Below are positions 1 through 14,721 of a stretch of DNA of 15,070 nucleotides, one piece after another. The DNA is taken from the NCBI GenBank assembly GCA_001563335.1, contig LRSL01000012.1, positions 1-15,070 of the forward strand, given 5' to 3'. Positions within the stretch are counted from its first letter, which is position 1. Every line of letters starts with the position of its first letter. The stretch is from Candidatus Thorarchaeota archaeon SMTZ1-45 (GTDB lineage: Archaea > Asgardarchaeota > Thorarchaeia > Thorarchaeales > Thorarchaeaceae). The notes below the pieces were generated by a model. That model ran no database searches and was not told the DNA's origin. It saw nothing but the letters and a program-made list of their open reading frames with translations. The position numbers and the translations under genes were made by a program.

Positions 1-79
1 AGAGAGCGCCTCCTTTACAGGAGAATTCGGAGATGACATCCACTACTCTCTGCTTAGAAGAAACTGGGGCATGTTTTAG
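1..79 (+). CDS. 3' end of a probable RimJ/RimL-type GNAT N-acetyltransferase (partial, begins left of window)
   Basis: Frame from nt 2 reads ESASFTGEFGDDIHYSLLRRNWGMF* (TAG 77-79), matching the typical G-x-x-x-D-x-x-x-Y-x-LL-x-x-x-W C-terminus of RimJ/RimL acetyltransferases. Only 25 codons are visible. Confidence 0.5.
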   Translation, partial: ESASFTGEFGDDIHYSLLRRNWGMF

Positions 80-108: not shown

Positions 109-214
109 ACAGAGAGGAATATTCTCTCTCTGTAAATTCTGTTTAATACATATGTTTCTCTTGTCCGATTGGTAGATATTCATAGCCGAATATCCCCTGA
201 ATAATGATGATTTG
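109..214 (-). repeat. Cassette-boundary repeat copy 1 (gene-3'-end duplication + hairpin)
   Basis: Hairpin ACAGAGAG(109-116)/CTCTCTGT(126-133). Core 142-210 contains TGTTTCTCTTG at 153. Minus strand reads QIIIIQGIFGYEYLPIGQEKHMY*. About 22/69 mismatches to my hand consensus. Confidence 0.85.
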
Positions 215-376
215 TGGATCGACTCGATTCAGTCCTTCGTTCGGAAACTAGTTAAGGCATGACAGAAAATGTACTGGGAGTATTGCGAGGGAGAAAGAAG
301 ACATTAGCACGCGCCAGTTCTTGAGGTGCAAGAGGAAACCTCGATTACTGCCATCGCAACTGAGGAGAGAGTGTTA

Positions 377-2017
377 ATGCAAAGAAAGGATGGAGTATGT
401 TTCGTAGTCTTATCACTGATGTTCATCCTGGTCCTAGGGAGTGTGCTCACAGTCGCTGACCTTGAAGGTAGTGACTTACAACCAAGTGTGATGGTTTCAG
501 ATCCCGAGAAAGGACAGCTGCAGGTTGCTAACACACCGCACACTTCGATAGTCATCGATGGAGATGCAAATTTCTCGGCCACAGCTCTGCTAGAGGGATG
601 GCCTGGTGATGGCTCATTTGAGAATCCTTATGTCATCGATAAACTGGACATAGACCGCGGTGGTGGCACAGGTCACTGCATATACATCAGCAATACTCGG
701 GTCAACTTCACCATCAGCAACTGCATTCTCACAGGTGCTAATTTATCTACGAACGCTGGTATCTATCTTGAAAATGTCACCTATAGCAAACTGATTGGAA
801 ACATTCTCTACAACAATGCCTTCATCATCTACCTCAAAGACTCTCACTCTGTTTTGATAAAGAACAATACCTGTACAAGTAACAGCCTGAGCATCAAGCT
901 AGAAGCGTCCAATTCCAACACAGTAGTGAATAACAACTGTACTGGCAACAGCGATGGCATCTATCTCAATAATTCGAATTCCAGCACAGTGATGAACAAC
1001 ACCCTCAACAGCAACGACAACTATGGCATCTACCTCGAATATTCATATTCCAACACCGTAGTCAACAACACCTGCACCAGCAGTCCTCTCTATGGCATCG
1101 TCCTCATGGAGTCCAATTCCAACATACTGGCGAATAACACCTGCGCCAACAATGACTATGGTATCTATCTCTATTTTAGTGATCTCAATGTCATTCAGTG
1201 GAACGTCCTAGACCAGAATGGCGGTTCAGGCTGGTGTTCGGGGACTGGCAATGTCTTCGACTATAACTACTGGTCAGACTACTCAGGTACTGATGCAAAC
1301 GGAGATGGTTTTGGTGATGCTCCCCACACGTTCCCTGGTAACTCTGATCCGCATCCATTGATGTATCTTCCATACGCACCTGACTGGCTGCACCTCCCTG
1401 TGGACCAGGTCATTGAGTATGGTAATATATTCGAATATCGTCTCGAGTTCATAGCCACAGCACTGACCGCACCCTATGAGCTGTCTGTAGATGATCATGT
1501 GAACTTCGCGGTGGGCTATGATGACACAATCATAAGTAGAATTCCACTCCCCGTTGGAGTCTACCCACTATGGGTTGTAGCGACTAACATCTACGGATAC
1601 GCGACTGAGGGCACCTTCATGTTAACGGTTGAAGACACGACCCCACCTCTGATAACGAGTCCTGAAGACATCACTCACACACAAGGAGAGGGTTATTATG
1701 AGATAGCTTGGACAATGTCGGATCTAAGCACTATTAGTTTCAGAGTTCTCCTAGACGGAACAGAGCTAACTTCAGGCGGAGTGACTACGACCTCAGTTTA
1801 TTTCACGATGACTCTCGAGGATAAGGACCCTGGCGTCTACAACTATACTATGGTCGCGGAAGATATCTGGGGCAACATAGCTATCGACACGGTCATTGTC
1901 ATGGTACTACCGATTCCGTTCATTGAAGTAATGTTTCCATGGATGGTTGGAGGTGCAGTGATTGTAATATCGATTGTTGTAATAGTCTTCTTTTTAAAAA
2001 GGCGAAAATCCTCGTAA
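377..2017 (+). CDS. Cell-surface protein: NosD/CASH right-handed parallel beta-helix repeats, Ig-like domains, C-terminal TM anchor
   Basis: ORF track 326..2017. ATG 377 is preferred because GAGGAG lies upstream and a signal-like hydrophobic stretch follows. Repeated GIYL-x-x-S-x-x-N-x-x-x-NN motifs, NYWSDY..DANGDGFGD motif, C-terminal hydrophobic helix + KRRKSS. Confidence 0.88.
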   Translation: MQRKDGVCFVVLSLMFILVLGSVLTVADLEGSDLQPSVMVSDPEKGQLQVANTPHTSIVIDGDANFSATALLEGWPGDGSFENPYVIDKLDIDRGGGTGHCIYISNTRVNFTISNCILTGANLSTNAGIYLENVTYSKLIGNILYNNAFIIYLKDSHSVLIKNNTCTSNSLSIKLEASNSNTVVNNNCTGNSDGIYLNNSNSSTVMNNTLNSNDNYGIYLEYSYSNTVVNNTCTSSPLYGIVLMESNSNILANNTCANNDYGIYLYFSDLNVIQWNVLDQNGGSGWCSGTGNVFDYNYWSDYSGTDANGDGFGDAPHTFPGNSDPHPLMYLPYAPDWLHLPVDQVIEYGNIFEYRLEFIATALTAPYELSVDDHVNFAVGYDDTIISRIPLPVGVYPLWVVATNIYGYATEGTFMLTVEDTTPPLITSPEDITHTQGEGYYEIAWTMSDLSTISFRVLLDGTELTSGGVTTTSVYFTMTLEDKDPGVYNYTMVAEDIWGNIAIDTVIVMVLPIPFIEVMFPWMVGGAVIVISIVVIVFFLKRRKSS

Positions 2018-2038
2018 CTGAATCATTCCATAGTGTTT

Positions 2039-2127
2039 CTCTCGATAGAATATTGAATCTACCTCTGTGTGACTTATCTGTACGACTGGTAATCAGGTCT
2101 GAATGTTTCCTGTGCATTGACAAACTG
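2039..2127 (-). repeat. Cassette-boundary repeat copy 2 (decayed)
   Basis: Core 2055-2123 GAATCTACCTCTGTGTGACTTATCTGTACGACTGGTAATCAGGTCTGAATG... aligns without gaps (~22/69 mismatches). Minus strand FVNAQETFRPDYQSYR*VTQR* has an internal stop. Only the CTCTC arm of the hairpin remains. Confidence 0.75.
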
Positions 2128-2298
2128 GGTGGTTCCATCCATAAGAAATGATGAGAAGCAAATCCATCTGCCTATTTACTCATTTTGTGACAAGATTGAA
2201 GTAGAGGTTGAAGTATCTTCATTATGGGACCATAATTTCCATGATAGATGTTATTCCAAAGTATCTGAGATGAGAGTCCTAATAGGTGGTTGTAAATT

Positions 2299-3312
2299 AT
2301 GAAGATCGAAGAAATAAGGAGAACTCATGAGAAGCGTCTGCTGAGAATCGCTAATGTAGTAGGAGTGATGATCGGATACAAGGTAACAGCGGGTGAAAAG
2401 ACCGATAAATTAAGCATTATTTGTCTAGTAGAGAAGAAAGTCAAGGAAAAGGACTTGAAAAAGCAAGACATCATCCCCGCCGAAATAGACGAAGAACTCA
2501 TTGATGTGATTCAGGTAGGGAAATTGAGGGCTTTTCAAATAGATAAAAAGACTCGACACAGACCTTGCCCAATGGGTACATCAGGAGGTCACTATCTAAT
2601 AACTGCAGGCACGAATGGGGAGTTGCTCAGAGATAAGAGAACAGGCAAGACTTGCATAGGGACCAATAATCATGTTGGAGCAAACTCAAATAATGCTCAG
2701 ATTGGAGATCCCTATCTTCAGCCTGCAGCTTATGATGGCGGTACTGTTCAAAACGACACAATAGGACATCTCTTGAGATTCATCCCAATAAGCTTCGGTT
2801 TGGACCAGAGCGAATGTGCGGCAGCAAGGTTCTGGAGCGGGATTTATAATATTCCTGCAAGGGCATTTGGAAGGATGACAAGGCTGCAACCAGTGGTTGC
2901 GTACCCTGAGTATAATCTAGTTGACGCAGCCATGATTGAAGTAGCTGAGAGTGATGTTTCAAGTAATATCGTAGAACTTGGAGTCCCACGAGGCGTCAGA
3001 CAGCCTCAATTAGATATGCTTGTACAGAAGTCGGGAAGAACATCATGTCACACAATTGACGGAGTAATAACTGGTATAGATGCTACGCTAGGTCCTATCG
3101 ACTATGGAGGGAGATACGCGTATTTCAGAGATCAGATAGTCATAAGCAAGGAGGGTTTCAGTGCTGGGGGTGACTCAGGAAGCCTGATCCTAGACAACGA
3201 GGGATATGCTGTGGGCAAGCTCTTCGCAGGTAGTGAGGAGCAGAATATTACAATAGCAAACTCAGTGCAGACCTATCTGGACATGCTTGACGCAGAATTA
3301 ATCACTGAATGA
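2299..3312 (+). CDS. Trypsin-like (PA clan, Nal1-like) serine protease with N-terminal prodomain-like region
   Basis: Catalytic triad motifs TNNHV (His), VDAA (Asp), GGDSGS (Ser); KSGRTS motif typical of this group; GGTGG upstream of ATG. Confidence 0.85.
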   Translation: MKIEEIRRTHEKRLLRIANVVGVMIGYKVTAGEKTDKLSIICLVEKKVKEKDLKKQDIIPAEIDEELIDVIQVGKLRAFQIDKKTRHRPCPMGTSGGHYLITAGTNGELLRDKRTGKTCIGTNNHVGANSNNAQIGDPYLQPAAYDGGTVQNDTIGHLLRFIPISFGLDQSECAAARFWSGIYNIPARAFGRMTRLQPVVAYPEYNLVDAAMIEVAESDVSSNIVELGVPRGVRQPQLDMLVQKSGRTSCHTIDGVITGIDATLGPIDYGGRYAYFRDQIVISKEGFSAGGDSGSLILDNEGYAVGKLFAGSEEQNITIANSVQTYLDMLDAELITE

Positions 3313-3321
3313 GGTCGCTCA

Positions 3322-3573
3322 ATGGTCACGTTAGAACAAGTGAAACGGGTAAAGGCTGAATATGAAGAGGAACTCATGAAAAAGTCCGGAGTTGTAGGTG
3401 TAGCAATTGGTCACAAGCACATCAATGGTGGAAAGACCAAGCAGCTCTGCATAATCTGCTATGTTATAGAAAAGAAACGAATAGGAGAACTTGAAGAACA
3501 CGATATCATCCCGGAGGAGATTGAAGGAGTTCCAATAGACGTTGTTGAGTCAGGAACGATTCGAGCTTTGTGA
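3322..3573 (+). CDS. Small protein homologous to the N-terminal ~80 aa of the upstream protease
   Basis: VVGVAIGHK..GGKTKQLCIICYV.EKK...DIIPEEIEGVPIDVVESGTIRAL aligns with protease VVGVMIGYK..GEKTDKLSIICLVEKK...DIIPAEIDEELIDVIQVGKLRAF. 9-nt gap with GAGGT RBS. Confidence 0.85.
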   Translation: MVTLEQVKRVKAEYEEELMKKSGVVGVAIGHKHINGGKTKQLCIICYVIEKKRIGELEEHDIIPEEIEGVPIDVVESGTIRAL

Positions 3574-3623
3574 AAGGAGGGGGATAGGTCGTACAGTCCC
3601 TGATTTAGGGAAGGTACTGAGGA

Positions 3624-3720
3624 GAGAGGAAGATCCTCTCAATTGAACATTGAAACAACATCTGTTTCTCTTGCTTGTACGGCAGACAGTCAGAGATAAT
3701 GATCTCACGAGCCATGACTA
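3624..3720 (-). repeat. Cassette-boundary repeat copy 3
   Basis: Hairpin GAGAGGA-AGA-TCCTCTC (3624-3640). Core 3652-3720. Minus strand IVMAREIIISDCLPYKQEKQML (stop TAG mutated to TTG). ~12/69 mismatches. Confidence 0.92.
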
Positions 3721-4287
3721 TGAATGAATTGCATTCCACGCAATCTCACATGCCTTCTCAATATTATTCTCATCCATCTTGACTATCCCCGCATAATGGA
3801 AATTCAGAAGGGTGATGATGGGGAAATAGGCAAATGCAGTCAAGATTGGTGGAGGTAGAGCTTTGATTGTCATCTCATTGATGCCCCGCTTGAGTAGACG
3901 GTCGACTGTCTGGAAAAGCTCGAAGTCCTCTGCCCTGATGTTCCTCATCATTGTTGTCCGTTCAAACTGCTCTCGATAGGCGAGATACTCTGGATGCCTG
4001 AGGTTGTATGTGAAAGAGTGATGCCAGATGGACTTGAATGCCTCTTCTGTTGTCATTCCTTCCTCAAATCCCTCCAATGCACCCCGACTCATCTTTTCCC
4101 GAATATCGATATAGAGCTTGGTGAAGAGGTCCTCCTTATTGTCGAAATAAATGTAGATAGTTGCTGGTGAAACCTTCGCCTTCTTCGCAATCTTTGAGAT
4201 AGAGATTCCATCAAAGCCTAGATCATTAATCAGGTTGATAGAAGCATCAACAATCGAATCATATTTTGCTTGGTCGCGTGTTCTCAT
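3718..4287 (-). CDS. TetR/AcrR family transcriptional regulator
   Basis: N-terminal HTH GFDGISISKIAKKAKVSPATIYIYFDNKEDL; 189 aa; divergent from the MBL gene. Confidence 0.95.
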   Translation of the reverse strand: MRTRDQAKYDSIVDASINLINDLGFDGISISKIAKKAKVSPATIYIYFDNKEDLFTKLYIDIREKMSRGALEGFEEGMTTEEAFKSIWHHSFTYNLRHPEYLAYREQFERTTMMRNIRAEDFELFQTVDRLLKRGINEMTIKALPPPILTAFAYFPIITLLNFHYAGIVKMDENNIEKACEIAWNAIHS

Positions 4288-4319
4288 GGCGAGTTATTGC
4301 ATGGCACGAAAGATATATA

Positions 4320-4363
4320 AATGAATGGTCATTCACTTTATTATTAGTGAATGAACGTTCACT
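4320..4363. promoter_or_regulatory. Two palindromic TetR operator candidates in the divergent promoter
   Basis: AATGAATG-GT-CATTCACT (4320-4337) and AGTGAATG-AA-CGTTCACT (4346-4363), 26 bp apart, adjacent to TATA-like ATATATAA (4313-4320) and TTTATTAT (4337-4344). Confidence 0.75.
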
Positions 4364-4378
4364 TATGAGAGTGTAAAC

Positions 4379-5056
4379 ATGACCGACACTTACATCACCA
4401 GGATTGAGTCCGGTGGAGTCAATTGTTACCTGCTTAAGGTGAAAGACGGATTTGTTCTCATTGACACCGGTTATGCAAATTATCGCGATATCATTGATGC
4501 GGCTCTAGCTAAGGCTGGGTGTAATACCCTCAACCTCATAATACTCACACATGGTGACTTCGACCATGTGGGTAACTGCGTCTATCTAAGAAGGAAGTTC
4601 GGTTGCAAAGTGGGAATGCATGCTGATGATGTAGGTATGGTCGAGAAAGGGGATATGTTCTGGAATAGAGATATGGGTCGGGTAAAGCGAACCATTGGGA
4701 GACTTTTCACTCTCATCATGCGAATTAGGCTTGATGAGGTAGACATGTTCTCACCAGACATCTTGCTGAAGGATGGACAGAGTCTTACTGAGTTTGGATT
4801 CGATGCAACTGTACATCATCTCCCAGGGCATTCCAAGGGCTCCATTGGACTTCTGACTGCAGATGGTGACCTCTTCTGTGGTGATGTCTTCACCAATGTG
4901 TCAATGCCAAAGGGATCCGACTTACTTTCGAATCGCAATGAATACATCAAGAGTCTAGAGAGAATACAGAGGCTCGATATCCAGACTGTTTATCCTGGCC
5001 ATGGTCAACCTTTCTCCAGAAGCGCATTCTCAAATATCTTTCAGGAGGTTTTTTGA
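4379..5056 (+). CDS. MBL-fold metallo-hydrolase
   Basis: LIDTG, THGDFDHVG (HxHxDH variant), PGHSKGS, LFCGD, YPGHG motifs. Confidence 0.93.
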   Translation: MTDTYITRIESGGVNCYLLKVKDGFVLIDTGYANYRDIIDAALAKAGCNTLNLIILTHGDFDHVGNCVYLRRKFGCKVGMHADDVGMVEKGDMFWNRDMGRVKRTIGRLFTLIMRIRLDEVDMFSPDILLKDGQSLTEFGFDATVHHLPGHSKGSIGLLTADGDLFCGDVFTNVSMPKGSDLLSNRNEYIKSLERIQRLDIQTVYPGHGQPFSRSAFSNIFQEVF

Positions 5057-5059
5057 TAT

Positions 5060-5644
5060 TTGACAAATTCGAATAGCGAAACAAGGAAATCTGAACACAA
5101 TCAGAGAAACCAACAATTGCGTCGCATTGCACTTGCGAGTTTTATATTCTTGATATGCGCCGCGACGCTAGTAATCATCCTGTTGCAGATGTCAGGATAC
5201 GCTGGGACAATGGAGGACACTCAGCTTGGATTCAATGCTGAGGTCATCAGAAACTACTTCTCTCTCATGAGCCAAACAGATATGGGACTCTTCATTGCTG
5301 CAAATCTTGCAGACTATCTCTTCATGTTGTTCTACGGCATCTTCTTTTTCAGTGCCGCCAGACTCATTTCATGGAACTATAAGAGAGGTCTCCCAAAGAG
5401 GATTGGTCTATCGCTTGCATGGGTAGGTGTCATAGCTGCTTTTCTAGACGGGATTGAGAATGTGTTCCTGCTCTCGATGACTGCTGACCCAATTGGGTTC
5501 GCTGGATGGCTCGCGATTGCTCACTCAAGCTTTGCCCTTGCTAAGTTTCTCTTCATGTATGTGGCAATGGCTTGGACCATGGTGGGTTTTGTGATGAACA
5601 GGACCCCTCTATCTACACATCTGATGGCAAGTCAGCTTGTTTGA
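5060..5644 (+). CDS. Hypothetical membrane protein (~4 TM helices)
   Basis: Starts 3 nt after the MBL stop; four hydrophobic segments; DYLF..FY and AFLDGIEN motifs. Start codon (TTG) uncertain. Confidence 0.75.
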   Translation: MTNSNSETRKSEHNQRNQQLRRIALASFIFLICAATLVIILLQMSGYAGTMEDTQLGFNAEVIRNYFSLMSQTDMGLFIAANLADYLFMLFYGIFFFSAARLISWNYKRGLPKRIGLSLAWVGVIAAFLDGIENVFLLSMTADPIGFAGWLAIAHSSFALAKFLFMYVAMAWTMVGFVMNRTPLSTHLMASQLV

Positions 5645-5659
5645 GATGAAAAGAATATT

Positions 5660-5762
5660 GAGGGAGCTTGAAGCTCCCTCTGTGAATATAGACTCAGAAT
5701 TGTTTCTCTTGTCCGTATAGTATATAGTCAGATCCGAAAATCACCCGCGCCATGACAATCTG
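5660..5762 (-). repeat. Cassette-boundary repeat copy 4
   Basis: Perfect IR GAGGGAGCTT-G-AAGCTCCCTC (5660-5680). Core 5690-5758. Minus strand QIVMARVIFGSDYILYGQEKQF* with TGA at the position where other copies have TAG. Confidence 0.92.
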
Positions 5763-5853
5763 TGTCACTTATTTTAGGAATAATCAAAGAGGTATGACAA
5801 ACTCAAGAGTTGGATTAAGGACATCTTGAATTCCACAAGCACAAAAATACCAA

Positions 5854-6465
5854 TTATTTGCTCAAGAATGCCATCACCCTTTCAATCAGATAACATGGTG
5901 TCCTACTCAATGTCTTGCTAATATTTCCTTTTGATGTCTTCATTACTTTTGCAATCTCGGAAACACGCTTCTTTTCCCATATGTAATAATAACAGTGCTC
6001 ACGCTGAGTTGTGCTTAGACCAAGTAAAGTCGTGAAAAACAGAATGGAATTTATCACAGCATTGTTCTTGCTGTCTGAGGCATTCTCGTCTAGCTTAAAA
6101 CCAGCCGACCTCTTCATGTATTTCATATTCTTTATCTCATCTAAAGCCTCTCTTGCGTTCCAGAAGGCCGGTCCATCACACTCATCAGCCTTTTCTTTGT
6201 ATATCATAATCTCTCCTGTTCCAAGTCCCACACGAAACTCCAACTCCTCGATCAGAAGCTTGTGGAATAGGAACACAATTGGATGCCAACTATTCACCAA
6301 CAGCTCCATGCTGTCACCTTGGGTCAAGACTGGGATAGCCACACAGTGCTCTCTGTAACGATTGTGTGTCAGGTCTAGTAAACCTTGTAACTTTTCGTAC
6401 AAATTCCTCCGCTCACGAGTATCGACATCTCTCGACGCTACGATATCAACGATGACCGCAATCAT
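5854..6465 (-). CDS. SatD family protein with C-terminal HTH
   Basis: DIVASR, TQGDS, FRVGLGTG, DGPAFWNAREALD motifs of the SatD family; C-terminal VSEIAKVMKTSKGNISKTL HTH. ATG 6465 with GGTGAG RBS preferred over TTG 6480. Confidence 0.85.
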   Translation of the reverse strand: MIAVIVDIVASRDVDTRERRNLYEKLQGLLDLTHNRYREHCVAIPVLTQGDSMELLVNSWHPIVFLFHKLLIEELEFRVGLGTGEIMIYKEKADECDGPAFWNAREALDEIKNMKYMKRSAGFKLDENASDSKNNAVINSILFFTTLLGLSTTQREHCYYYIWEKKRVSEIAKVMKTSKGNISKTLSRTPCYLIERVMAFLSK

Positions 6466-6472
6466 CGCTTTC

Positions 6473-6939
6473 TCACCCAACCAACAGAAATCTGAAGATT
6501 CCCCACGCCAATGCCAAAGCCATAGTAATACTCATGAGTGTACCTAGAATATACCAATCTGCACATGCACGATTATTGGTTTCTTTGCTCGAGTACCGGA
6601 AAATGGCTTTGCCAGCAACAATGACTGACAGAAAACTGAGAATTGCTGTATATGACAAGGCAGTGTCAAAATAAGCTATTACAATTGCTAAATATATCAG
6701 ACTCCTCTCTGTATATCCTATTAACATTTTAAGGCAATGTCTTCTTCAAGCCCTCTTCCCAACCAACCAAAAACCAAGTCAATTATCAAACCAGGCATAA
6801 ACAGAGTCAATAGATAACTAAAAAGAATAGTGAAGAATTCTGTATCTACTACAAGCATTGGAAATGCAGCAATTAGATACAGCGCTATACTACTTATGAT
6901 TGATATTAGTAAACCAAGAATCCGTTGAACGATCTTCAT
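6473..6939 (-). pseudogene. Frameshifted membrane protein (DUF3307-like SatD partner), split into 6721..6939 and 6473..6727
   Basis: Two overlapping hydrophobic ORFs. The second carries IGYTERSLI ... KAIFRY ... WYILGTLMS, typical of the C-terminal half of SatD-associated membrane proteins. Frame break at ...GCCTTAAAATGTTAATAGGA (~6728). Confidence 0.65.
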
Positions 6940-6988
6940 ATGAGCACCACATAATCATGTTAAATCCATATTGCCTTGCTCTGTAATA

Positions 6989-7067
6989 AGTTTACCTTTT
7001 TTATTAACAATATATTATGTTAATCATATAAGGAAACATAAATTAATGTTAACCTATATAGTTACAA
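6989..7067. promoter_or_regulatory. Three tandem 29-bp-spaced imperfect palindromes TGTTAA-N9-TTAACA upstream of the SatD operon
   Basis: AGTTTA-CCTTTTTTA-TTAACA (6989), TGTTAA-TCATATAAG-GAAACA (7018), TGTTAA-CCTATATAG-TTACAA (7047). AT-rich background lowers certainty. Confidence 0.5.
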
Positions 7068-7104
7068 ATAGGACTGACTAATGATTCGCCTTATCCTGGT
7101 GTAA

Positions 7105-7207
7105 AAGGGGGAGGAAGACCCTCTCTTGAAGAATATTAGAAACTACATCTGTTTCTCTTGCCTGTATGGCAGAAAGTCGGGTCCGAAAATCTCGCTTGTC
7201 ATGTAAG
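7105..7207 (-). repeat. Cassette-boundary repeat copy 5
   Basis: Imperfect hairpin AAGGGGGAGG-AAGA-CCCTCTCTT (7105-7127). Core 7139-7207. Minus strand MTSEIFGPDFLPYRQEKQM* (TAG 7143-7145). Confidence 0.95.
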
Positions 7208-7345
7208 AATGATTAGTTGTTAGAAGGCTCTAATGTTTGTGTTGCGACACAAGTCTACCTCAAGTTCGATTAAAATATATATCATTAATACTCAAGTTGG
7301 GTCATACTGTCGAATGTCAAACAGTCAAAATGAGCTGAAAAAAGT

Positions 7346-8569
7346 ATGAATCAAAGTAGGAAGATCATTCTTGGAGTAATCTTGATCGGAATTGTTGCCT
7401 TTGCGAGCATTGGGATTGTGCTTTTCCTAGATCATCCAATTACGCTTGATTCCAAGATTCAGCAATTAATGGACGATGGTGATATCCCTTCTTTTGCAGC
7501 CGGTATTGTCATTAATGACACCTTAGTCTGGTCAAAAGGTTACGGTGATCAACCAAGCTTAGATACAGTCTATATGATTGGATCGGTAACTAAAATCTTT
7601 ACAGCAACCGCCATTATGCAACTCTATGATGATGGTACGCTTGACCTTGACGCAGATGTTAACGATTACATCCCTTTTAGCGTTCGGCATCCTATGTATC
7701 CAAGCACTCCAATAACACCCCGTTTGCTCTTGACCCATAAGTCAGGAATCGCAAGTGATGTTTCAAACCAGACCCTCTGGGACTTCGATACAGTCATGAT
7801 TACCTGGGCAAATGATAACTTAGGCGCTGGTCTTCCCTTATGGTCATCACGTCCTACACTAGCAGAATTCTTGAATGGCTCTCTAAACCCTGGTGGTCCT
7901 TATTATTCACCAGAAAATTGGGTTTCACAACCTGGGGGACCAATAAGGCACTACTCTAACACAGGATTTCTTCTACTTGCATATATCGTAGAACAACTCA
8001 CGAACACATCATATATGGAGTACCTGCAGGAGAATGTCTTGGAACCATTGGATATGACTAACACAGGGTTCAACTACACTGATTTTGTGGGTAGAAATGC
8101 CATCCCATACGCATTCAGAGATGGTCAAAACTCTGTGTATCCTCATTATAACCAGTATAACTATGGTGGCGGGGCTGTAAGAACTACAGTCCCAGACTTG
8201 GCTAATCTCCTAATTGCTCACATGAACCAAGGGCACTATGATGACTCACAGATTCTTTCACCTCAAACTATTGATCTGATGCAAACATCGCAATTCAGCA
8301 TGTCTGGTGTCGAGTTTGGCGGTTTTACATACGTTGGACAGGGTCTGGGATGGTTTCTCTTCACGAATAATACTATAGCACATGGTGGGGCAACACCCGG
8401 TTTTCTAGCACAAATCGCATTTAAAACAGTCAGCAACGGCAAATATGGAATTCTGTTCATGGTCAATAGGGGTGCTAGCTTGGTAGAAGACAATTATCTG
8501 GTAAACACCTTCTTCCCATCTATGATTAGCACACTCTTCGATGAAGCTGCTCGATTGTTCAATATGTAG
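7346..8569 (+). CDS. Serine hydrolase, beta-lactamase/PBP-like family, N-terminal membrane anchor or signal peptide
   Basis: SxxK (IGSVTK), LLLTHKSG, YSN, HGG motifs; hydrophobic N-terminus. Confidence 0.93.
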   Translation: MNQSRKIILGVILIGIVAFASIGIVLFLDHPITLDSKIQQLMDDGDIPSFAAGIVINDTLVWSKGYGDQPSLDTVYMIGSVTKIFTATAIMQLYDDGTLDLDADVNDYIPFSVRHPMYPSTPITPRLLLTHKSGIASDVSNQTLWDFDTVMITWANDNLGAGLPLWSSRPTLAEFLNGSLNPGGPYYSPENWVSQPGGPIRHYSNTGFLLLAYIVEQLTNTSYMEYLQENVLEPLDMTNTGFNYTDFVGRNAIPYAFRDGQNSVYPHYNQYNYGGGAVRTTVPDLANLLIAHMNQGHYDDSQILSPQTIDLMQTSQFSMSGVEFGGFTYVGQGLGWFLFTNNTIAHGGATPGFLAQIAFKTVSNGKYGILFMVNRGASLVEDNYLVNTFFPSMISTLFDEAARLFNM

Positions 8570-8633
8570 TGTGTGAAAATCCCCAAAGTGAAATGCAAAC
8601 TAGGATTGTACCTTGCGTGAGACAAAAAAGAAA

Positions 8634-8737
8634 GGGGAGAGGAGAACCCTCTCTCCATTTGAAACTTGAAACTACGATTGTTTCTCTTGACTTTGCAGCA
8701 GATAATCAGGTCCAAAGATCTTTTGTGATTCGACGAT
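8634..8737 (-). repeat. Cassette-boundary repeat copy 6
   Basis: Hairpin GGGGAGAGG-AGAAC-CCTCTCTCC (8634-8656) preceded by an A-run (U-tract on minus strand). Core 8668-8736. Minus strand IVESQKIFGPDYLLQSQEKQS*. Confidence 0.92.
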
Positions 8738-8789
8738 GCAAAGACTCATTTTCAACTCAAGAAATAAGTGAAGCTTGGAAAGAAAGTAC

Positions 8790-9920
8790 ATGAAAGTTGA
8801 ATTAAATGTCAGTGTTCAGAATGTGATAGATGGACTAGTTGCATCAGGTGAAGAAATAGGTTTACAGGTCGCAGTCTATGTTAATGGCGAACTTGTCGTC
8901 GATGCATGGACTGGGGTTGTGGATGAGGTCAATAGGAAACCAGTCAATGGTGATACACTCTTCACATCGTGGTCGACGACCAAAGGGTTTGTTTCAACGT
9001 GTATTCACATTCTTGCTGACCGTGGTCTTATAGACTACGACACTCCAGTGGATACTTACTGGCCTGAGTTTGCAGCACATGGCAAAGACAAGATCACGGT
9101 TCGTAATGTCCTCACTCATTCCTCCGGGATACCACAGATGCCTGAGGATGTAACTCCAGAGATGCTGACAGACTGGGATGCAATGTGCACGGCAATAGCT
9201 AACCTTAAGCCACTATGGACTCCAGGGACTAAATCTGTCTATCATTTTTGGACATTCGGGTGGATTATTGGTGAGGTCATCCGTCGAGTCGATGGTCGCC
9301 CCGTTTCACAGTTTGTACAGGAAGAACTCTGTCAACCTCTGGGTATCAATGACTTCTATCTGGGCATTCCTGATACTGTGGAGCATCGTGTCGCACCACT
9401 TAGAGAAGAATCAACTCCTGATGCTGTAGCATCTGAACTGGACGATTTGGTTTTCCGAGTGACACCACCACAGATTACATGCGCTGAAGCTCTCAATCGA
9501 CATGATGTCCGACGGGCTTGCATCCCTGCCTGTGGTGGAATCATGAATGCTCGTGCTATTGCTCGACACTACGCAATGCTTGCTGGCTTCGGAGAGTTAG
9601 ATGGAATCCGAATCTTGTCAAAAGAACGAGTCGAGCTGATTCGCACTCTTCAGAAAGTTGATCCGGACGAGGTCCACATAGGGCAGATTCCCAAAGGTCT
9701 TGGATATCTCCTTGGGGGAAATCCCTATCATGACTGGAGTATCGCAATGGGTGAGACTGGTGGAGAATTTGGCCATCCCGGTCATGGTGGTTCACTAGGG
9801 TTTGCTGACCCAAACCGAAACCTTGGCTTTGGTCTGACCAAGAATCTCATGAAAGAAGGGGATGAAACCGTACGCATGGTGGCTGAAACAATCAGAAATC
9901 ATCTCGATAATACTCTCTAA
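8790..9920 (+). CDS. Serine hydrolase, beta-lactamase-related esterase (EstA/family VIII-like), cytoplasmic
   Basis: SxxK (WSTTK), YWPEFAAHGKDKITVRNVLTHSSG, YH, FGHPGHGGS..FADP motifs. ATG 8790 preferred over TTG 8775. Confidence 0.93.
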   Translation: MKVELNVSVQNVIDGLVASGEEIGLQVAVYVNGELVVDAWTGVVDEVNRKPVNGDTLFTSWSTTKGFVSTCIHILADRGLIDYDTPVDTYWPEFAAHGKDKITVRNVLTHSSGIPQMPEDVTPEMLTDWDAMCTAIANLKPLWTPGTKSVYHFWTFGWIIGEVIRRVDGRPVSQFVQEELCQPLGINDFYLGIPDTVEHRVAPLREESTPDAVASELDDLVFRVTPPQITCAEALNRHDVRRACIPACGGIMNARAIARHYAMLAGFGELDGIRILSKERVELIRTLQKVDPDEVHIGQIPKGLGYLLGGNPYHDWSIAMGETGGEFGHPGHGGSLGFADPNRNLGFGLTKNLMKEGDETVRMVAETIRNHLDNTL

Positions 9921-9951
9921 TCGAATTTCTTTAATGGAGAAAAGAAGAAGA

Positions 9952-10054
9952 TGAAAGAGGTGATTTAAACCTCTTTCAGTGGGTGAAACTACATCTGCTT
10001 CTCTTGCCTGTATGGTAGATGGTCAGGTCCAAAGAACTCATGAGCTATGACGAT
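9952..10054 (-). repeat. Cassette-boundary repeat copy 7 (closest to consensus)
   Basis: Perfect 10-bp IR TGAAAGAGGT/ACCTCTTTCA (9952-9978). Core 9985-10053. Minus strand IVIAHEFFGPDHLPYRQEKQM*. ~8/69 mismatches. Confidence 0.95.
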
Positions 10055-10103
10055 GAATGAGATGAAATTGGCTCTGATTTTTACCTGCGGGACTTTCTCA
10101 AAG

Positions 10104-10146
10104 TTTATATGGTTTCAATATCAATACCGATATCGCAAGCGATATC
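10104..10146 (+). promoter_or_regulatory. TATA box and palindromic PadR operator candidate
   Basis: TTTATAT (10104-10110) preceded by purine-rich AAAG; perfect IR GATATCGC-AA-GCGATATC (10129-10146) over the expected transcription start. Confidence 0.7.
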
Positions 10147-10195
10147 AATAGTGATAAAGTTGTTACAATACCTGAATGGAGGTGAAAGAAAAAAC

Positions 10196-10735
10196 ATGCG
10201 TAGATCACATATACACAGACACTGGGATAGACGAACCTCATCAGTCCCGAAGGGATACCTTCGAGGCAAAGTCCTACGACTACTCAATAAGAAACCTATG
10301 TCGGGTGCTGAGATTATGAGTGATATTGAGGAAAACACTGGTCACAGATGGAGACCAAGTCCTGGATCTGTCTATCCGCTACTCTCATGGCTCTTAGACT
10401 CGGGTTATACGAAGGAACTGGCTGACACCGAGGCAGGTGTCCGACGATACGAGTTGACCGAGGAAGGTAGGAAACTTCTGGAAGAGCATGAGGAACGAAG
10501 AGCACAAGATAAAGGCGCTAGATTCTTCGGACCCCAGTTCGATGAATGGGATGGTGCCTTACCTGAAGGGGTTAGAGAACTAGCTGAAAGCTGGCATAAG
10601 ATGCGGAGAGCCAGTTATGCCCTCCGGAGAAAGCTAATGAAGGAATACTCCGAAACACTAGTATTGGAGGCTAAGAAACTGGTGGATGAATTCACGGAGA
10701 AGATCTCCAGAATAGCTGAATTTGATAAGGCATAA
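10196..10735 (+). CDS. PadR family transcriptional regulator
   Basis: KPMSGAEIM..WRPSPGSVYPLL..RRYELTEEGRKLL winged-helix signature. ATG 10196 follows GGAGGTGA RBS; the ORF-track start 10109 overlaps the promoter. Confidence 0.93.
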   Translation: MRRSHIHRHWDRRTSSVPKGYLRGKVLRLLNKKPMSGAEIMSDIEENTGHRWRPSPGSVYPLLSWLLDSGYTKELADTEAGVRRYELTEEGRKLLEEHEERRAQDKGARFFGPQFDEWDGALPEGVRELAESWHKMRRASYALRRKLMKEYSETLVLEAKKLVDEFTEKISRIAEFDKA

Positions 10736-10746
10736 ACTGCATCTAC

Positions 10747-10785
10747 GATGGAGTGGATTCCTTCACTCCATCACACTCTTTTTTT
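10747..10785 (+). terminator. Hairpin + T-tract terminator after padR-like gene
   Basis: GATGGAGTG/CACTCCATC stem (10747-10772) followed by ACACTC and TTTTTTT. Confidence 0.7.
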
Positions 10786-10806
10786 CATACCATGTATTAA
10801 CTAGAA

Positions 10807-10860
10807 AGAGAGAGTGAGAGCGAAAGACCCCCTCTCTAATTAATTAATGAATCTACATCT
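10807..10860 (-). repeat. Cassette-boundary repeat copy 8 (truncated)
   Basis: AGAGAG...GAAAGACCCCCTCTCT hairpin-like segment, then GAATCTACATCT (10849-10860), matching the first 12 nt of the core at 11/12. Similarity stops abruptly at 10861. Confidence 0.7.
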
Positions 10861-10938
10861 AGAGTACCATCTAAGTTAAGTGATAAGATATACTATTGAA
10901 TTTCAATTCACGTTGTTGCGAAAGGAAAGGGAGATCGC

Positions 10939-13900
10939 ATGAAATGGTCGATTTTCGTATTTGTTCTTTCAATGATTTTAGTATTTACATGGACACCAAT
11001 AATCTCAGACCCTACTGGACCATTAGAACATAGGTCAATTTCGTTTAGGCATGGTTTTCAACAATCCTATGATGTTCATAGTCCAATTGTTATTGCTAAT
11101 AATACAGACTTCGAATATCAGGCACAGCTTGAAGGATGGGTTGGAAATGGTACTCAGTCTAATCCCTACATTATTGAGGGCCTTTTGATAGATAGAAGCG
11201 GCTTAGCAGGTTATTGTATCGACATCCGGTCCACCACTATATATTTTGAGATACGAAATTGCCATCTCACTGGAGCAACAGTGAATGGGTATGCAGCTAT
11301 ATACCTGGGTGCAGTATCAAATGGAAAACTAACAAACAACAACTGCTCGGTCAATTACTATGGAATTTATGCTAATGGTGGGGGATACAATACGCTATAC
11401 AACAACACTTGCAGGAATAACTACAATGGAATTTATGTTCGAGCTTCTGCCTCACCCACTGTATCAAACAACAATTGTAGTGACAACTCTCTTTATGGCA
11501 TTTACTTGTGGGGCTCTGCTACAACAAATGGTGTAATTCAGGATAATCTATGTTTAGATAATGGTGGAAACGGCATCGATTCATACTACACTCATGATAC
11601 AAGTTATATAAACAACACATGCGTAATAAACTCAGGTTCAGGTATTCATATCAATATCGGGAACAATCCTTTCTTATTGAATAATACATGTAATTGGAAT
11701 GGCGGGCATGGAATTCACCTGGATCAGGGAGGTTATACATATCACTACGTTAGAAACAATACCTGTAGCAATAATAGTGTTATAGGAATCTATGCTCAAG
11801 ATTGGACAGATGGTGAAATCATCAAGAATTTGTGTTGGGACAACTCCTATGGTATCAGACTCACTGCATCGGACTCAGTCATAATAAGGAACAACACGCT
11901 CAATGTACACAATATTGGCATCTCGATAGACGGGTCATCAGATGGAAACACGTTCAACTGGAACGCAGTCAGAGATTGTGTTACCAACTACGCCATAGAT
12001 GATGGTACTAGTAACAATTTCAACTACAACTTTTGGTCAAACTACACAGGAACTGACAGTGATATGGATGGTTATGGTGACACGCCTTATTCTATCGATG
12101 GAACCTCTATGACGCAGGATTCGTATCCTTTAATATTCCCTCCTGATTTACCACCAATCGCTTGGATTGAGACGCCAATCAATCAAGTAATTTCTGAATT
12201 CGATGTATTCTATTATGACCTGAATGCGACTTTACATGCATCTTTAGACACTTGGCATGTAAACGACACGAATCATTTCACTGTGGACTCACTGGGAGTT
12301 GTGAGAAACTCATCTATTCTTGACCCAGGCATGTATGGAATCCAGATTGTAGTTAATGACTCATATGGCAACTATCTCATCGGAACCTTCTCACTGCTAG
12401 TTCTTGATTTCACACAGCCCAGTTGGATTGAGGAACCAACTAATAGATACTTCAGAGCTACCGATGCAATAATAGTCGACTTGGATGCATTTGATATTTC
12501 AGGCATCGACACGTGGTGGATTAGTGATGAAACAAATTTCATTATAGATGAAAATGGTGTGATAACGAATGTCAAGTCCTTACCTGATGCGATTTACCCA
12601 ATCCAAGTCTGGGTCAATGACACATCAGGGAACACACTCTCCGCCCAATTCAACATCAGTGTGGACCATAGTGCACCATATAGGCATGCCGCAATCTATA
12701 TCAATGGTGATGCTGATTTCTTGGTTCAAAACTGGTCTGGTGCAGGCACCCTCGAAGACCCCTATATCATTGAGTATCTTGAGATAAGTCCTGATGGAGA
12801 TTTTGAGTTTTGTATAGAGATTCTAAATACGCAATCATACTTCATCATTCGAGATTGCTTGTTGATTCATGCATGCATTGGGATCCGTCTCTACAATGTA
12901 ACTAATGCACTGATTGAGAATAATCTACTTTTAAACAATGAAGCTGGGATTGAATTGTCCTATTCATCCAACAATGATTTCCTTGATAATCTCTTTGACA
13001 GCTCTGAATTTGGTCTCTACTTGTGGAATTCGAATGAAAACAGAATAGATGGCTGTTCATTTAGTGGTGGTCAAGCTGGAATGTATTTCTATGAATCTGA
13101 TTGGAACGAAGTGACTGCATGTATCTTCAATCAGAGCTACAATGGACTTTATTTCAACACTTCCTCTTCCAACACAATCCTCATGAACACATTTCTTGAC
13201 TTCTCAATGTATCAAATTGTATTCTGCTCGCCATCAAACACTAACAACATTACTTGGAACATTTTCAATAATACACTAGGCTTCTACTTTAGCGGATTTA
13301 TTGTTAACATCTATGACTACAACTTCTGGCTTGCATATGCTGGTGTGGATGATAATGCTGATGGATATGGTGACACTCCATATTATATTCCTGGGGGAAT
13401 TGGACATGAGGATTCACACCCTCTCATGTACAGACCTTATCATCCAAGCTTTACAGACTTCCCAGAAGACCAGATCATTGAGATAGGGACAGCGTTCCAA
13501 TTCGATTGTAATGTCTACTCTCAGGCACCTATTTGGAGATGGTGGATTGATGATGAACTGCATTTTAATATCGATACCGAAGGAATCTTGACAAATACAA
13601 CATTTCTGGAAGCAGGTGAATATGTTATTAGAATTGGTGTTGAAAACATCTACAAGTTTGGTATCTCATCCATTTTTGTTCTGACCATTCAGGATACTAC
13701 CTCACCAATATTCGTTCCCTCCCTGACTAATCAGATGGTTGAATTTGGAAGCGTCTTATATTACGATATCAATGCACACGATTGGGGAGGTATTGACCAA
13801 TGGTGGATCAATGACACCATCCATTTCTCAATAGATAGTAATGGACATGTTACATCCGTTGGACCCCTTCCTGTTGGCGTTTACGGTCTTCGTGTCTGGG

Positions 13901-14604
13901 TAAATGACACACATGGAAACTTGTTAAGTGACACGTTTTCCATCGAAGTTCAGGATACATTGTCCCCAGAGTGGATAGAAACTCCAACTGACCAATTCGT
14001 TGAGTATGGCACCACATTTGTGTGTATGCTCAATGCTACCGACCTATCAGGTATTGATGACTGGTGGATTGATGACATAATTCGATTCACAATAGATTGG
14101 ACTGGAACAATCAGGACAATATCGATTCTACCCCCGGGTTCCTATGGCATTCAAGTCTGGGTCAGTGATATTTATGGCAATGAACTGAGTGCGGCGTTTG
14201 TTGTGGATGTTGCAGACACAACACCTCCAGAGTGGGTTGTTGAACCAGTCGACCAGTTCTTGGAATATGGTGAACCCTTAAGTTATCAGCTCAATGTATT
14301 TGACCTATCAACTATTGATGCATGGAGTCTTAATGATACAGAGAATTTTCATATCAATACTAGCGGATTGATTACAAACATTGTGCTACTTGATCCTGGA
14401 CAATATAGCCTACAGGTCAGTGTATCTGATGAATATGGAAACACACTCAGTTCTATCTTCACTATCCACGTTGTTGACATAACAACAACCCCTCCACCCC
14501 CTATACTTACTCCAGAAGTAATCTATCTTTTAGTTGGTGTAGTTGCAACAGTGGCAATCACAATCACACTATTCATCATCTTGAGAAAGCGTTCTGGAAG
14601 ATAA
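10939..14604 (+). CDS. Large cell-surface protein: two NosD/CASH beta-helix modules, multiple ~87-aa Ig/cadherin-like repeats, C-terminal TM anchor
   Basis: Signal peptide; two GW/NW-x-G-x-GT-x-x-N/DPYIIE-headed beta-helix blocks, each ending YNFW..Y.G.D..DGYGDTPY; repeated P.W...P.DQ..E.G..D.SGID.WW..D...F.ID..G.I units; TM + RKRSGR tail. Confidence 0.92.
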   Translation: MKWSIFVFVLSMILVFTWTPIISDPTGPLEHRSISFRHGFQQSYDVHSPIVIANNTDFEYQAQLEGWVGNGTQSNPYIIEGLLIDRSGLAGYCIDIRSTTIYFEIRNCHLTGATVNGYAAIYLGAVSNGKLTNNNCSVNYYGIYANGGGYNTLYNNTCRNNYNGIYVRASASPTVSNNNCSDNSLYGIYLWGSATTNGVIQDNLCLDNGGNGIDSYYTHDTSYINNTCVINSGSGIHINIGNNPFLLNNTCNWNGGHGIHLDQGGYTYHYVRNNTCSNNSVIGIYAQDWTDGEIIKNLCWDNSYGIRLTASDSVIIRNNTLNVHNIGISIDGSSDGNTFNWNAVRDCVTNYAIDDGTSNNFNYNFWSNYTGTDSDMDGYGDTPYSIDGTSMTQDSYPLIFPPDLPPIAWIETPINQVISEFDVFYYDLNATLHASLDTWHVNDTNHFTVDSLGVVRNSSILDPGMYGIQIVVNDSYGNYLIGTFSLLVLDFTQPSWIEEPTNRYFRATDAIIVDLDAFDISGIDTWWISDETNFIIDENGVITNVKSLPDAIYPIQVWVNDTSGNTLSAQFNISVDHSAPYRHAAIYINGDADFLVQNWSGAGTLEDPYIIEYLEISPDGDFEFCIEILNTQSYFIIRDCLLIHACIGIRLYNVTNALIENNLLLNNEAGIELSYSSNNDFLDNLFDSSEFGLYLWNSNENRIDGCSFSGGQAGMYFYESDWNEVTACIFNQSYNGLYFNTSSSNTILMNTFLDFSMYQIVFCSPSNTNNITWNIFNNTLGFYFSGFIVNIYDYNFWLAYAGVDDNADGYGDTPYYIPGGIGHEDSHPLMYRPYHPSFTDFPEDQIIEIGTAFQFDCNVYSQAPIWRWWIDDELHFNIDTEGILTNTTFLEAGEYVIRIGVENIYKFGISSIFVLTIQDTTSPIFVPSLTNQMVEFGSVLYYDINAHDWGGIDQWWINDTIHFSIDSNGHVTSVGPLPVGVYGLRVWVNDTHGNLLSDTFSIEVQDTLSPEWIETPTDQFVEYGTTFVCMLNATDLSGIDDWWIDDIIRFTIDWTGTIRTISILPPGSYGIQVWVSDIYGNELSAAFVVDVADTTPPEWVVEPVDQFLEYGEPLSYQLNVFDLSTIDAWSLNDTENFHINTSGLITNIVLLDPGQYSLQVSVSDEYGNTLSSIFTIHVVDITTTPPPPILTPEVIYLLVGVVATVAITITLFIILRKRSGR

Positions 14605-14721
14605 TCCAGTCGGAATATCTCTCTTTACTTGAATTGGTAAATCAATAATCACTCAAATCTGCTAAATGAACACATTCTCTCCATTTTTAGATTTAAATAT
14701 CCGACATTCTGTAAATACGCT

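Follow-up and report, generated by a model that had tools for sequence, protein, structure and literature searches.

Small gene cassettes between duplicated ends of an acyl-CoA dehydrogenase gene: a probable additive island without a recognisable integrase in Thorarchaeia

The complete 15,070-nt contig C12 (LRSL01000012.1) of Candidatus Thorarchaeota archaeon SMTZ1-45 (GCA_001563335.1), hereafter the window, carries a series of small gene cassettes separated by a direct repeat of ~130 nt, which occurs as seven full copies and one partial copy on the same strand throughout and which duplicates the 3' end of an acyl-CoA dehydrogenase (ACAD) gene. The genome that holds the window (G000) is a 3.54-Mb draft of 119 contigs and is 87.7% complete. 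A profile built from 69 aligned copies matched the + strand of the window at 101–218, 2037–2130, 3605–3727, 5644–5766, 7102–7203, 8620–8741, and 9939–10060, and in part at 10801–10860. Repeat finding assigned 2054, 3651, 7138, 8667, and 9984 to one family and 153, 5701, and 9996 to an overlapping family, and an alignment of all eight stretches succeeds. The repeat unit is ordered as a purine-rich run, a GA-rich hairpin (typically GAGAGAGG-loop-CCTCTCTC), a spacer of ~10–20 nt, and a core of ~70 nt, and the copies follow one another at 1.3–2.0 kb, with 0.86 kb before the partial copy. This is the spacing given in the first-pass annotation of this DNA, which had described eight same-orientation copies of a hairpin plus a core; eight copies are indeed present, with starts within 1–2 nt, but the one at 2055 has no hairpin. 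The core consensus printed there had zero matches in the window at ≤3 mismatches, because the other window copies are only 61–74% identical to the reference copy; it is a consensus and never an actual sequence.

The variable columns of the core recur every third base. On the minus strand, the core of the 69 aligned copies reads as an open frame, (I/V)V-MAREIFGPDYLPYRQEKQM, followed by TAG, ~20 nt, the hairpin, and a pyrimidine/T-rich run. A six-frame genome scan showed that one copy, on contig C113 of G000, is the true end of a 414-aa open reading frame (ORF) with Acyl-CoA_dh_N/M/1 domains, in which the Pfam Acyl-CoA_dh_1 match reaches residue 400; in NCBIfam, this ORF was placed at the general family level only. 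The core is the last ~22–24 codons plus the stop codon of the ACAD gene, and the hairpin is the ACAD terminator. In many copies, conservation extends to the Lys and Gln codons preceding Ile-Val-Met (QKIVM), and a stem of at least 6 consecutive bp was found in 78 of 95 distinct full copies versus 31 of 95 shuffles, with 59 different stem arms. The first-pass annotation had proposed a free-standing site other than attC or tRNA; the exclusion of those two classes stands, but the site is a duplicated gene end on the opposite strand, and the array therefore belongs with gene-end- and tRNA-anchored additive islands and not apart from them. A short frame beside a terminator could also be a functional module in its own right, namely, a bidirectional terminator or insulator, a small RNA, or a micro-peptide gene copied beside many genes. 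The hairpin keeps its shape while its sequence varies, it lies where convergent transcripts end, and a frame of 19–22 codons is open in most copies, all of which would suit such a module; however, in the ACAD fold the frame forms the C-terminal helix (residue 400 of 414 still lies within the Pfam match), conservation runs on to QKIVM, no Rfam family was found at E ≤ 1, and the copies lie nowhere but on the two flanks of a single gene. We consider this explanation very improbable.

The eight copies in the window read as gene ends on the − strand. Copy 1 (101–218) is a pseudo 3' end of ACAD (peptide ...IIIIQGIFGYEYLPIGQEKHMY*) with its terminator hairpin, and copy 2 (2009–2138) is the most decayed full copy, with internal stop codons and a lost hairpin. 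Copy 3 (3605–3736) encodes …VMAREIIISDCLPYKQEKQM, its stop codon being gone; copy 4 (5644–5773) has a hairpin of the GAGGGAGC/GCTCCCTC type; copy 5 (7095–7219) encodes …MTSEIFGPDFLPYRQEKQM*; and copy 6 (8620–8751) is full. The GAGGGAGC/GCTCCCTC and GAGAGAGG/CCTCTCTC hairpins both occur at the genic ends of different species and are intermixed within arrays. Copy 7 (9939–10068) is a mosaic, in which the hairpin and the core half next to it match the copy that accompanies cassette F (described below) in locus L036, whereas the other end matches the copy beside the PadR cassette in L025. Partial copy 8 (10801–10860) comprises the purine run, the hairpin, the spacer, the stop codon, and the final two codons; 13 nt of the core are kept before a break that falls, on the + strand, immediately after TACATCT.

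Repeats of about read length on short contigs could reflect a single repeat that the assembler collapsed or joined chimerically. Logan contigs were used to check the joints of the window and to look for excised forms. Contigs from four runs belonging to four studies span the window, single contigs traverse copies 2, 6, and 7, and depth in run X1 is even at ~9x; a depth spike at 504–1006 is explained by internal direct repeats of the beta-helix genes (window 907–1174 and 11335–11437). With a 26–39% difference between copies, this coverage, and the same architecture in 23 other genomes and 16 metagenome contigs, the likelihood of an assembly artefact is negligible.

Cassette A (226–2008, + strand) holds a 563-aa NosD/right-handed beta-helix protein (326–2017; PF13229, PF05048); cassette B (2139–3604, +) holds a 337-aa NAL1_N and trypsin-like peptidase protein (2299–3312) and an 83-aa NAL1_N protein (3322–3573); and cassette C (3737–5643, both strands) holds a TetR regulator (3718–4287, −) divergent from an MBL-fold hydrolase (4379–5056) and a 194-aa unknown protein (5060–5644). 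Cassette D (5774–7094, −) encodes a SatD-family protein (5854–6480) and two small ORFs (6473–6727 and 6721–6939). A 407-aa serine hydrolase of PF00144 with a beta-lactamase/esterase fold occupies cassette E (7220–8619, +) and falls far under all NCBIfam beta-lactamase cut-offs, a 381-aa esterase-like hydrolase of the same family occupies cassette F (8752–9938, +), and a PadR-family regulator (10109–10735) occupies cassette G (10069–10800, +). At the left end, translation of 1–79 (+) gives the 3' end of a contig-truncated ORF, the last gene of the cassette to the left; this 25-aa piece, labelled GNAT in the first-pass annotation, had no Pfam match. The right end (10861–15070, +) carries a 1221-aa beta-helix/PKD surface protein (10939–14604) and the start of a DUF362 gene (14722–15069). 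Because a Logan contig from run X1 extends beyond 15070 into a further repeat copy (joint 15070→3620) and a DUF362 homologue lies between repeats in locus L028, 10861–15070 is probably one more, larger cassette behind a truncated repeat and not the flank of the array. The array does continue outside the window, as had been suspected, both in this Logan contig and through the same repeat on four other contigs of G000. Likewise, the description of the units as unrelated modules of 1–3 genes is generally correct, except that two cassettes carry PF00144 serine hydrolases and two ORFs are of the NosD/beta-helix type, and the reported lack of integrases and transposases was borne out by the 15 window ORFs scanned, none of which has such a domain. 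The cassettes lie in both orientations, apparently with their own promoters. The arrays repeatedly carry NosD/right-handed beta-helix surface proteins, of which the array contigs of G000 (the window, C113, C116, and C65) hold at least six. Contigs from runs X2 and X3 have 25 additional nt at window position 6723, where the two small ORFs of the SatD cassette meet.

Tandem small cassettes between structured repeats recall integrons, in which the attC site is a folded imperfect palindrome with conserved AAC/GTT ends (R'' RYYYAAC and R' GTTRRRY). On either strand of the window, RYYYAAC...GTTRRRY pairs 40–130 nt apart numbered 0, versus a mean of 3.06 in 100 shuffles. Single-strand DNA folds of seven copies gave local stems only, mainly the 6–10-bp terminator hairpin, and left the ends unpaired, and RNAalifold on the 69 copies returned 0 pairs, although gappy hairpin columns may have hidden the local stem that is evident in individual copies. 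Searches with Rfam (E ≤ 1) and ARAGORN found nothing, and by these tests the repeat is neither attC nor tRNA. Unlike attC, the Thorarchaeia repeats consist of a reading frame and a terminator, the conserved part being the frame and not a palindrome, and cassettes occur in both orientations; no IntI was found, with zero PF00589 matches in G000 and none on the listed array contigs of the genus. As far as the available text of Ghaly et al. 2022 (PMC9668308) goes, integrons in archaea are mostly clusters of attC sites lacking integron integrases (CALINs), which are enriched in Asgard archaea and whose attC sites are more alike within a genome. The Thorarchaeia array resembles CALINs in its small unrelated cassettes, its repeated site, and the lack of a recombinase in its units, but that it should be an ordinary cassette array of this kind with unusual attC sites is scarcely credible in view of the above.

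The profile search of G000 returned 37 matches, 35 of which lie on 5 of the 119 contigs and on a single strand of each contig (C113, 10; C61, 9; C12, 8; C116, 5; and C65, 3); the two others are weak and cover the hairpin part only. The five repeat-bearing contigs total ~99 kb with at least 35 copies, and the array on C113 begins at the ACAD stop codon and extends to the contig end. The first-pass annotation had named genome-wide scatter without clustering as counting against its reading; the copies are not scattered, their clustering being far above chance, and a dispersed repeat such as a miniature inverted-repeat transposable element or a repetitive extragenic palindrome is contradicted by the concentration of 35 of 37 matches on five contigs, one strand each. 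A self-BLAST of G000 revealed no other clustered short-repeat family of comparable kind.

The repeat was present in 23 of 24 other genomes of the same genus and absent from all 16 searched genomes outside it. A pattern scan of GTDB representative genomes returned 24 stretches from metagenome-assembled genomes (MAGs) titled Thorarchaeota, Promethearchaeota, Hermodarchaeota, or uncultured archaeon. Sixteen metagenome contigs matched, all of them array pieces and 13 of them with 2–11 copies; they showed no similarity to the recombinases among the ORFs of recombinase loci, and the sole tblastn matches of the ORFs from those loci were of one L085 ORF, which matched places in several array loci. Viral contigs gave 0 matches to two repeat patterns, so that this search yielded no virus or plasmid with the site. 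At E ≤ 1e-100, 17 of 28 genus genomes have a single copy of the ACAD ortholog, with 82–91% amino-acid identity. The gene end matched the repeat in 10 of the 13 ACAD loci that were fetched, and 7 of these show 1–4 further copies downstream; in the other three, the contig stops inside or at the gene. The array starts at an intact ACAD gene on C113 of G000 and in 10 of the 13 loci of relatives. Arrays range in size from two adjacent copies (G023) to at least 35 (G000).

The upstream side of the gene has an array of its own. Between species, DNA homology at ACAD begins abruptly ~80 nt ahead of the ATG and runs to the stop codon/terminator, the DNA beyond either limit being unrelated. A second repeat forms the upstream boundary, a 30–45-nt block with a TATA-like element (…CGAAGGAACTATAAGCAGGGCAC…), some copies of which reach the ATG through the 5' untranslated region; these 5' copies extend 30 to 85 nt from one fixed start. 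On C113, copies lie at 5906, 6829, 7621, and 8706 (genic), with weaker ones at 5028 and 2877, and the promoter-repeat array spans 2877–8752 of that contig (locus L003). Two to four copies each were found in G012, G014, G041, G016, and G013, and G011 has a single (genic) copy, with leuB abutting the ACAD promoter. The downstream arrays of G000 contain no 5' (promoter) copy, and no match to the 3'-end repeat of G000 lies upstream of ACAD. Both ends of the ACAD gene are cassette docking sites. In G041, two upstream promoter copies directly abut an ATG, and these copies may drive cassette genes.

We compared copies in the arrays with genic copies, defined by at least 200 open codons upstream, a class that can include a few non-ACAD ORFs. 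Variability by codon position in 110 distinct non-genic copies was 0.107/0.084/0.261, and 391 of 799 changed codons (0.489) were synonymous versus 0.160 expected (maximum 0.193 in 200 simulations) from random placement of an equal number of changes. The frame is open to the same stop codon in 71 of the 110. By this coding signature, the non-genic copies diverged under selection as real gene ends, and so they were working gene ends fairly recently. For all 21 scorable array copies of G000, its own gene end was never the nearest genic end but ranked 7th–12th of 13, with 6–11 genic ends of other species closer. By this comparison, the array copies of G000 are not recent duplicates of the resident gene end; the ranks agree with displacement by an incoming copy and likewise with import from other lineages, without proving either.

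Cassettes recur in other species beside different neighbours. Cassette F, together with both flanking repeats, is present in L036, from another species, at 83% identity and among unrelated neighbours. Two other species carry the PadR cassette (G), at 93% and 92% identity, with homology that ends precisely at 10794, immediately ahead of the purine run and hairpin of partial copy 8. The TetR and 194-aa unknown genes of cassette C are adjacent in G041, without the MBL gene, and on G001:C8 the SatD cassette (D) directly adjoins a PadR cassette. Many additional cassette pairs with 88–99% identity connect other species. Cassette content and order thus vary between relatives, with F, G, and parts of C and D standing beside different neighbours and homology breaking at the repeats, in line with the reading of the first-pass annotation. 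In addition, Logan contigs from other studies show different neighbours at three repeats, with loose ends near 3647, 8655, and 9989, a weak indication from contigs only. A joint 6217→12132 has a 21-nt side and was seen in one run, joints within 612–1147 fall in beta-helix repeats, and the stretch that links 10006 to 3702 probably represents a further repeat copy.

We consider it probable that the array is an additive island formed by serial single-crossover insertion at duplicated ACAD ends and that the window is an internal piece of it. A circular DNA with one copy of the gene end would recombine with a chromosomal copy (Campbell-type), after which the gene end would flank the insert on both sides, and repeated rounds would give a series of gene, end, cassette, end, and cassette. 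Insertion at the gene-attached copy would turn the incoming copy into the new working end and push the old end into the array, and this displacement would explain the coding look of the non-genic copies. The same process acting on the ACAD promoter copies would have built the upstream array. Cassettes would exit by recombination between two repeats and could enter other genomes of the genus. We infer circular intermediates, a conveyor-like order of insertion, transfer between species, and a catalyst. If this explanation holds, there would be a not quite even chance that the catalyst is host homologous recombination on 35–130-nt homology, a somewhat smaller chance that it is an unseen site-specific recombinase that lies outside the array and was missed by the four Pfam models used here, and a small chance that the array is a relic that is now inactive.

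Several observations weigh against serial insertion. No integrase was found near ~100 array loci, whereas well-studied gene-end island systems have, without exception, integrases in at least some units. The Logan contigs over the window contain no circle junction or excised form and no clean cassette-skipping joint. The comparison genomes are draft MAGs of different species, so that gain and loss at the strain level are not seen directly, and cassette order across 130-nt repeats may be mis-assembled in places in such drafts. Several shared cassettes are 78–85% identical between species as compared with 79–81% for ACAD, a baseline taken from 2 of 5 genomes (a glutamine-synthetase DNA query matched 0 of 5), and may have been inherited rather than transferred; recent transfer of the 92–93% identical PadR cassette is not established. 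The breakpoints of truncated copies are spread over many positions, with no sharp peak, and decay and deletion therefore also shape the array. The bias in the orientation of cassette genes is weak (29 of 50 ORFs are antisense to ACAD), and serial insertion does not account for how new genes would first gain a flanking repeat.

To search for recombinases, we used PF00589, PF16795, PF00239, and PF07508, and G000 gave 0 matches to all four. Within the genus, PF00589 and PF00239 were each found in 8 of 28 genomes, and none of these matches lies on the contigs listed as array-bearing; G004 and G013, for example, are 92–95% complete and have arrays but neither recombinase family. The 12 integrase loci that were fetched contain no repeat copy, and 187 ORFs in or beside arrays have no recombinase catalytic domain, the scan yielding one TnpB-like gene and a weak LAGLIDADG match only. 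The recombinase acting in trans that the first-pass annotation had invoked thus gained no support, as the four families had no match in G000 and no recombinase was found among the 187 ORFs in or beside arrays; host homologous recombination is about as plausible a catalyst. Elements that use the host Xer recombinases at dif have no integrase of their own and form tandem arrays at a host site; by contrast, 20 of 28 genus genomes, several of them 92–97% complete, have no PF00589 match and hence no Xer-type enzyme that can be recognised. Serine recombinases of the small resolvase type are limited to 8 of the 28. The TnpB-like gene, a 715-aa ORF with a Cas12f1-like TNB domain, lies at G015:C49 11685–13832 (L100), ~9 kb upstream of ACAD and outside the arrays.

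The repeats nevertheless have features that a dedicated enzyme would account for. The block around the stop codon is almost invariant in array copies, with third-position variability of 0–0.25 versus 0.17–0.42 at genic ends, and it contains a 5-bp inverted repeat with a 7-nt spacer, at the edge of which partial copy 8 breaks. In both repeat families, the boundary toward ACAD-upstream is constant whereas the opposite limit varies, and ~44 truncated 3' copies retain the fixed side versus ~22 that lose it (a tally of bins). Fixed boundaries, conservation that includes synonymous sites, and a break at the spacer of an inverted repeat would all be expected of an integron analogue in which a site-specific recombinase, encoded elsewhere or unbinned and outside current models, makes a defined crossover in the gene-end copy, and, in the available text of the reports on Dehalococcoides (PMC3146451) and Prochlorococcus (10.1101/2020.12.28.424599), arrays of gene-end repeats are integrase-made. 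However, none of the four recombinase families matched in G000, array-bearing genomes of 92–95% completeness lack both families, the 187 array ORFs have no catalytic domain, and the 12 integrase loci have no repeat. Two repeat sequences would require two specificities, the mosaic junction of copy 7 lies mid-core and away from the inverted repeat, and the polymorphic sites in the repeats form no linkage blocks (mean r2 0.02–0.07 at all distances), in an analysis that is unable to separate recombination from recurrent mutation. We regard such an enzyme as rather unlikely.

The last three points read differently if the repeats are simply portable homology for the host homologous recombination machinery, with circles excised between copies and re-inserted anywhere by a single crossover; the founder duplication may then stem from one long-lost integrative element. 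Two unrelated repeats at opposite ends of one gene both delimit cassettes, the repeats are long (35–130 nt) and vary in extent, copy 7 is a mosaic, linkage is near zero, alternative neighbours join at different points of the repeat (3647, 8655, and 9989, the weak evidence from contigs only mentioned above), and no recombinase genes were found, all of which fit this possibility. By contrast, it predicts neither a fixed boundary opposite a variable side nor the extra conservation of the stop-codon block, array copies that are only ~75–90% alike should hinder such recombination, and if direct repeats recombined efficiently, arrays as long as 35 copies would be eroded. We are not aware of any comparable natural array described as the product of homologous recombination alone, and we hold this version to be possible but doubtful.

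A third possibility is a frozen relic, in which integrase-bearing elements inserted serially at the ACAD 3' end and deletions then left immobile remnants and att scars. Many copies are truncated at varied points, the G041 island has long repeat-free stretches, and some shared cassettes are merely as similar as the core gene, as would be expected of remnants; the available part of the report on Prochlorococcus islands likewise describes degraded elements and scattered partial tRNAs (10.1101/2020.12.28.424599). However, the six-frame search of G000, which reads through stop codons, found zero integrase fragments and none were found in ~100 array loci, cassettes stand in different neighbourhoods across species, units are as small as 0.4–1 kb, and the open frame in 71 of 110 non-genic copies together with their strong synonymous bias argues for recent turnover. 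A relic is therefore improbable.

Serial insertion at a gene end places the array beside several known systems. As far as the available text of McMurdie et al. 2011 (PMC3146451) shows, the tandem ssrA islands of Dehalococcoides carry a 20-bp repeat of the transfer-messenger RNA gene, 16 islands have a serine-recombinase module, and some units without integration genes were proposed to be cis-mobilizable by accretion. The Thorarchaeia arrays share with them tandem units downstream of a single-copy gene, direct repeats from its 3' end, and strain-specific cargo; they differ in that many units are 0.4–2 kb and recombinase-free, as opposed to units of several kb or more, in that the repeat is ~130 nt of a protein-coding gene end plus terminator, and in having a second array upstream of the gene. 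The tycheposons of Prochlorococcus (Hackl et al., 10.1101/2020.12.28.424599) target tRNA genes with tyrosine recombinases and, according to the accessible portion of that study, comprise 937 integrase-carrying elements, with excision detected by PCR. In tycheposon islands, which hold niche-adaptive cargo and degraded remnants, successive integrations at the same site displace older elements and leave partial copies of the target gene between units, much as we propose for our arrays; unlike tycheposons, the Thorarchaeia target is the protein-coding ACAD gene, no excised form was seen in the contigs, and no tyrosine recombinase was found in G000 or in the arrays. Two further candidates proved unrelated, judging by the parts of the reports available: the Aloposons (Wu et al. 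2022) are giant-gene elements that target tRNA, and the Atabeyarchaeia elements (Valentin-Alvarado et al. 2024) have 11-bp motifs and their own integrases. A search of the literature on integrons, cassettes, ACAD integration sites, and repeat-flanked islands in Thorarchaeia and Asgard archaea found no paper on the locus, leaving aside the MAG list in the supplements of Ghaly et al. 2022. Relative to known islands, we rate as new the occurrence, genus-wide in Asgard archaea, of an island that is anchored at a gene end, lacks integrases, is built of mini-cassettes, and is two-sided.

No closer relatives of eukaryotes are known than the Asgard archaea, whose gene exchange is poorly understood. 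Additive flexible genomic islands beside tRNA genes, with serial addition at an anchored site, are reportedly found in Alteromonas. The ACAD locus is a genus-wide hotspot that stockpiles and reshuffles genes for surface proteins, regulators, and hydrolases, and also for a restriction-modification system in one relative, without a recognisable integrase. We tentatively propose that it might be a cassette-capture platform of Thorarchaeia, integron-like in function, in which the two ends of a housekeeping gene (the promoter and the 3' end plus terminator) dock integrase-less mini-cassettes, each with its own copy of the gene end, that repair the gene as they insert and cross between species, run by an unrecognised recombinase or by specialised archaeal homologous recombination. 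A dedicated enzyme, if it exists, would constitute a new recombination system; if homologous recombination acts alone, an integron-like gene library would be possible without special machinery. The ACAD gene end is a practical marker for the flexible genome in Thorarchaeia metagenomes, and "novel repeat families" may, as a caution, be gene ends read on the wrong strand.

Array units vary in size, the smallest being 0.4–1 kb. A 13.5-kb unit of G015 (C49 ~24.0–37.5 kb; L067 3989–17543) lies between two flanking repeats and contains a type I restriction-modification system (HsdR/M/S), a HerA-like ATPase, a DprA-like protein, a PRTase, and a 1073-aa protein with the weak LAGLIDADG match; it is a defence-island-like cassette. 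Copies in G041 are spread over ~29 kb of a 77-kb contig, and the two adjacent copies of G023 are followed by a large Ig-domain gene. G001:C8, a 122-kb contig, has the PadR and SatD cassettes in its middle, at ~82.4–87.8 kb (L046), together with one full and one partial repeat copy, whereas the ACAD gene of this genome is on C34; the locus is a secondary one or else belongs to a remote section of the island in which repeats are absent over long distances. Paired copies 14–25 nt apart with nothing between them, resembling empty cassettes, were observed at G000:C113 14131–14390 and on G023:C181 (L069 5400–5665).

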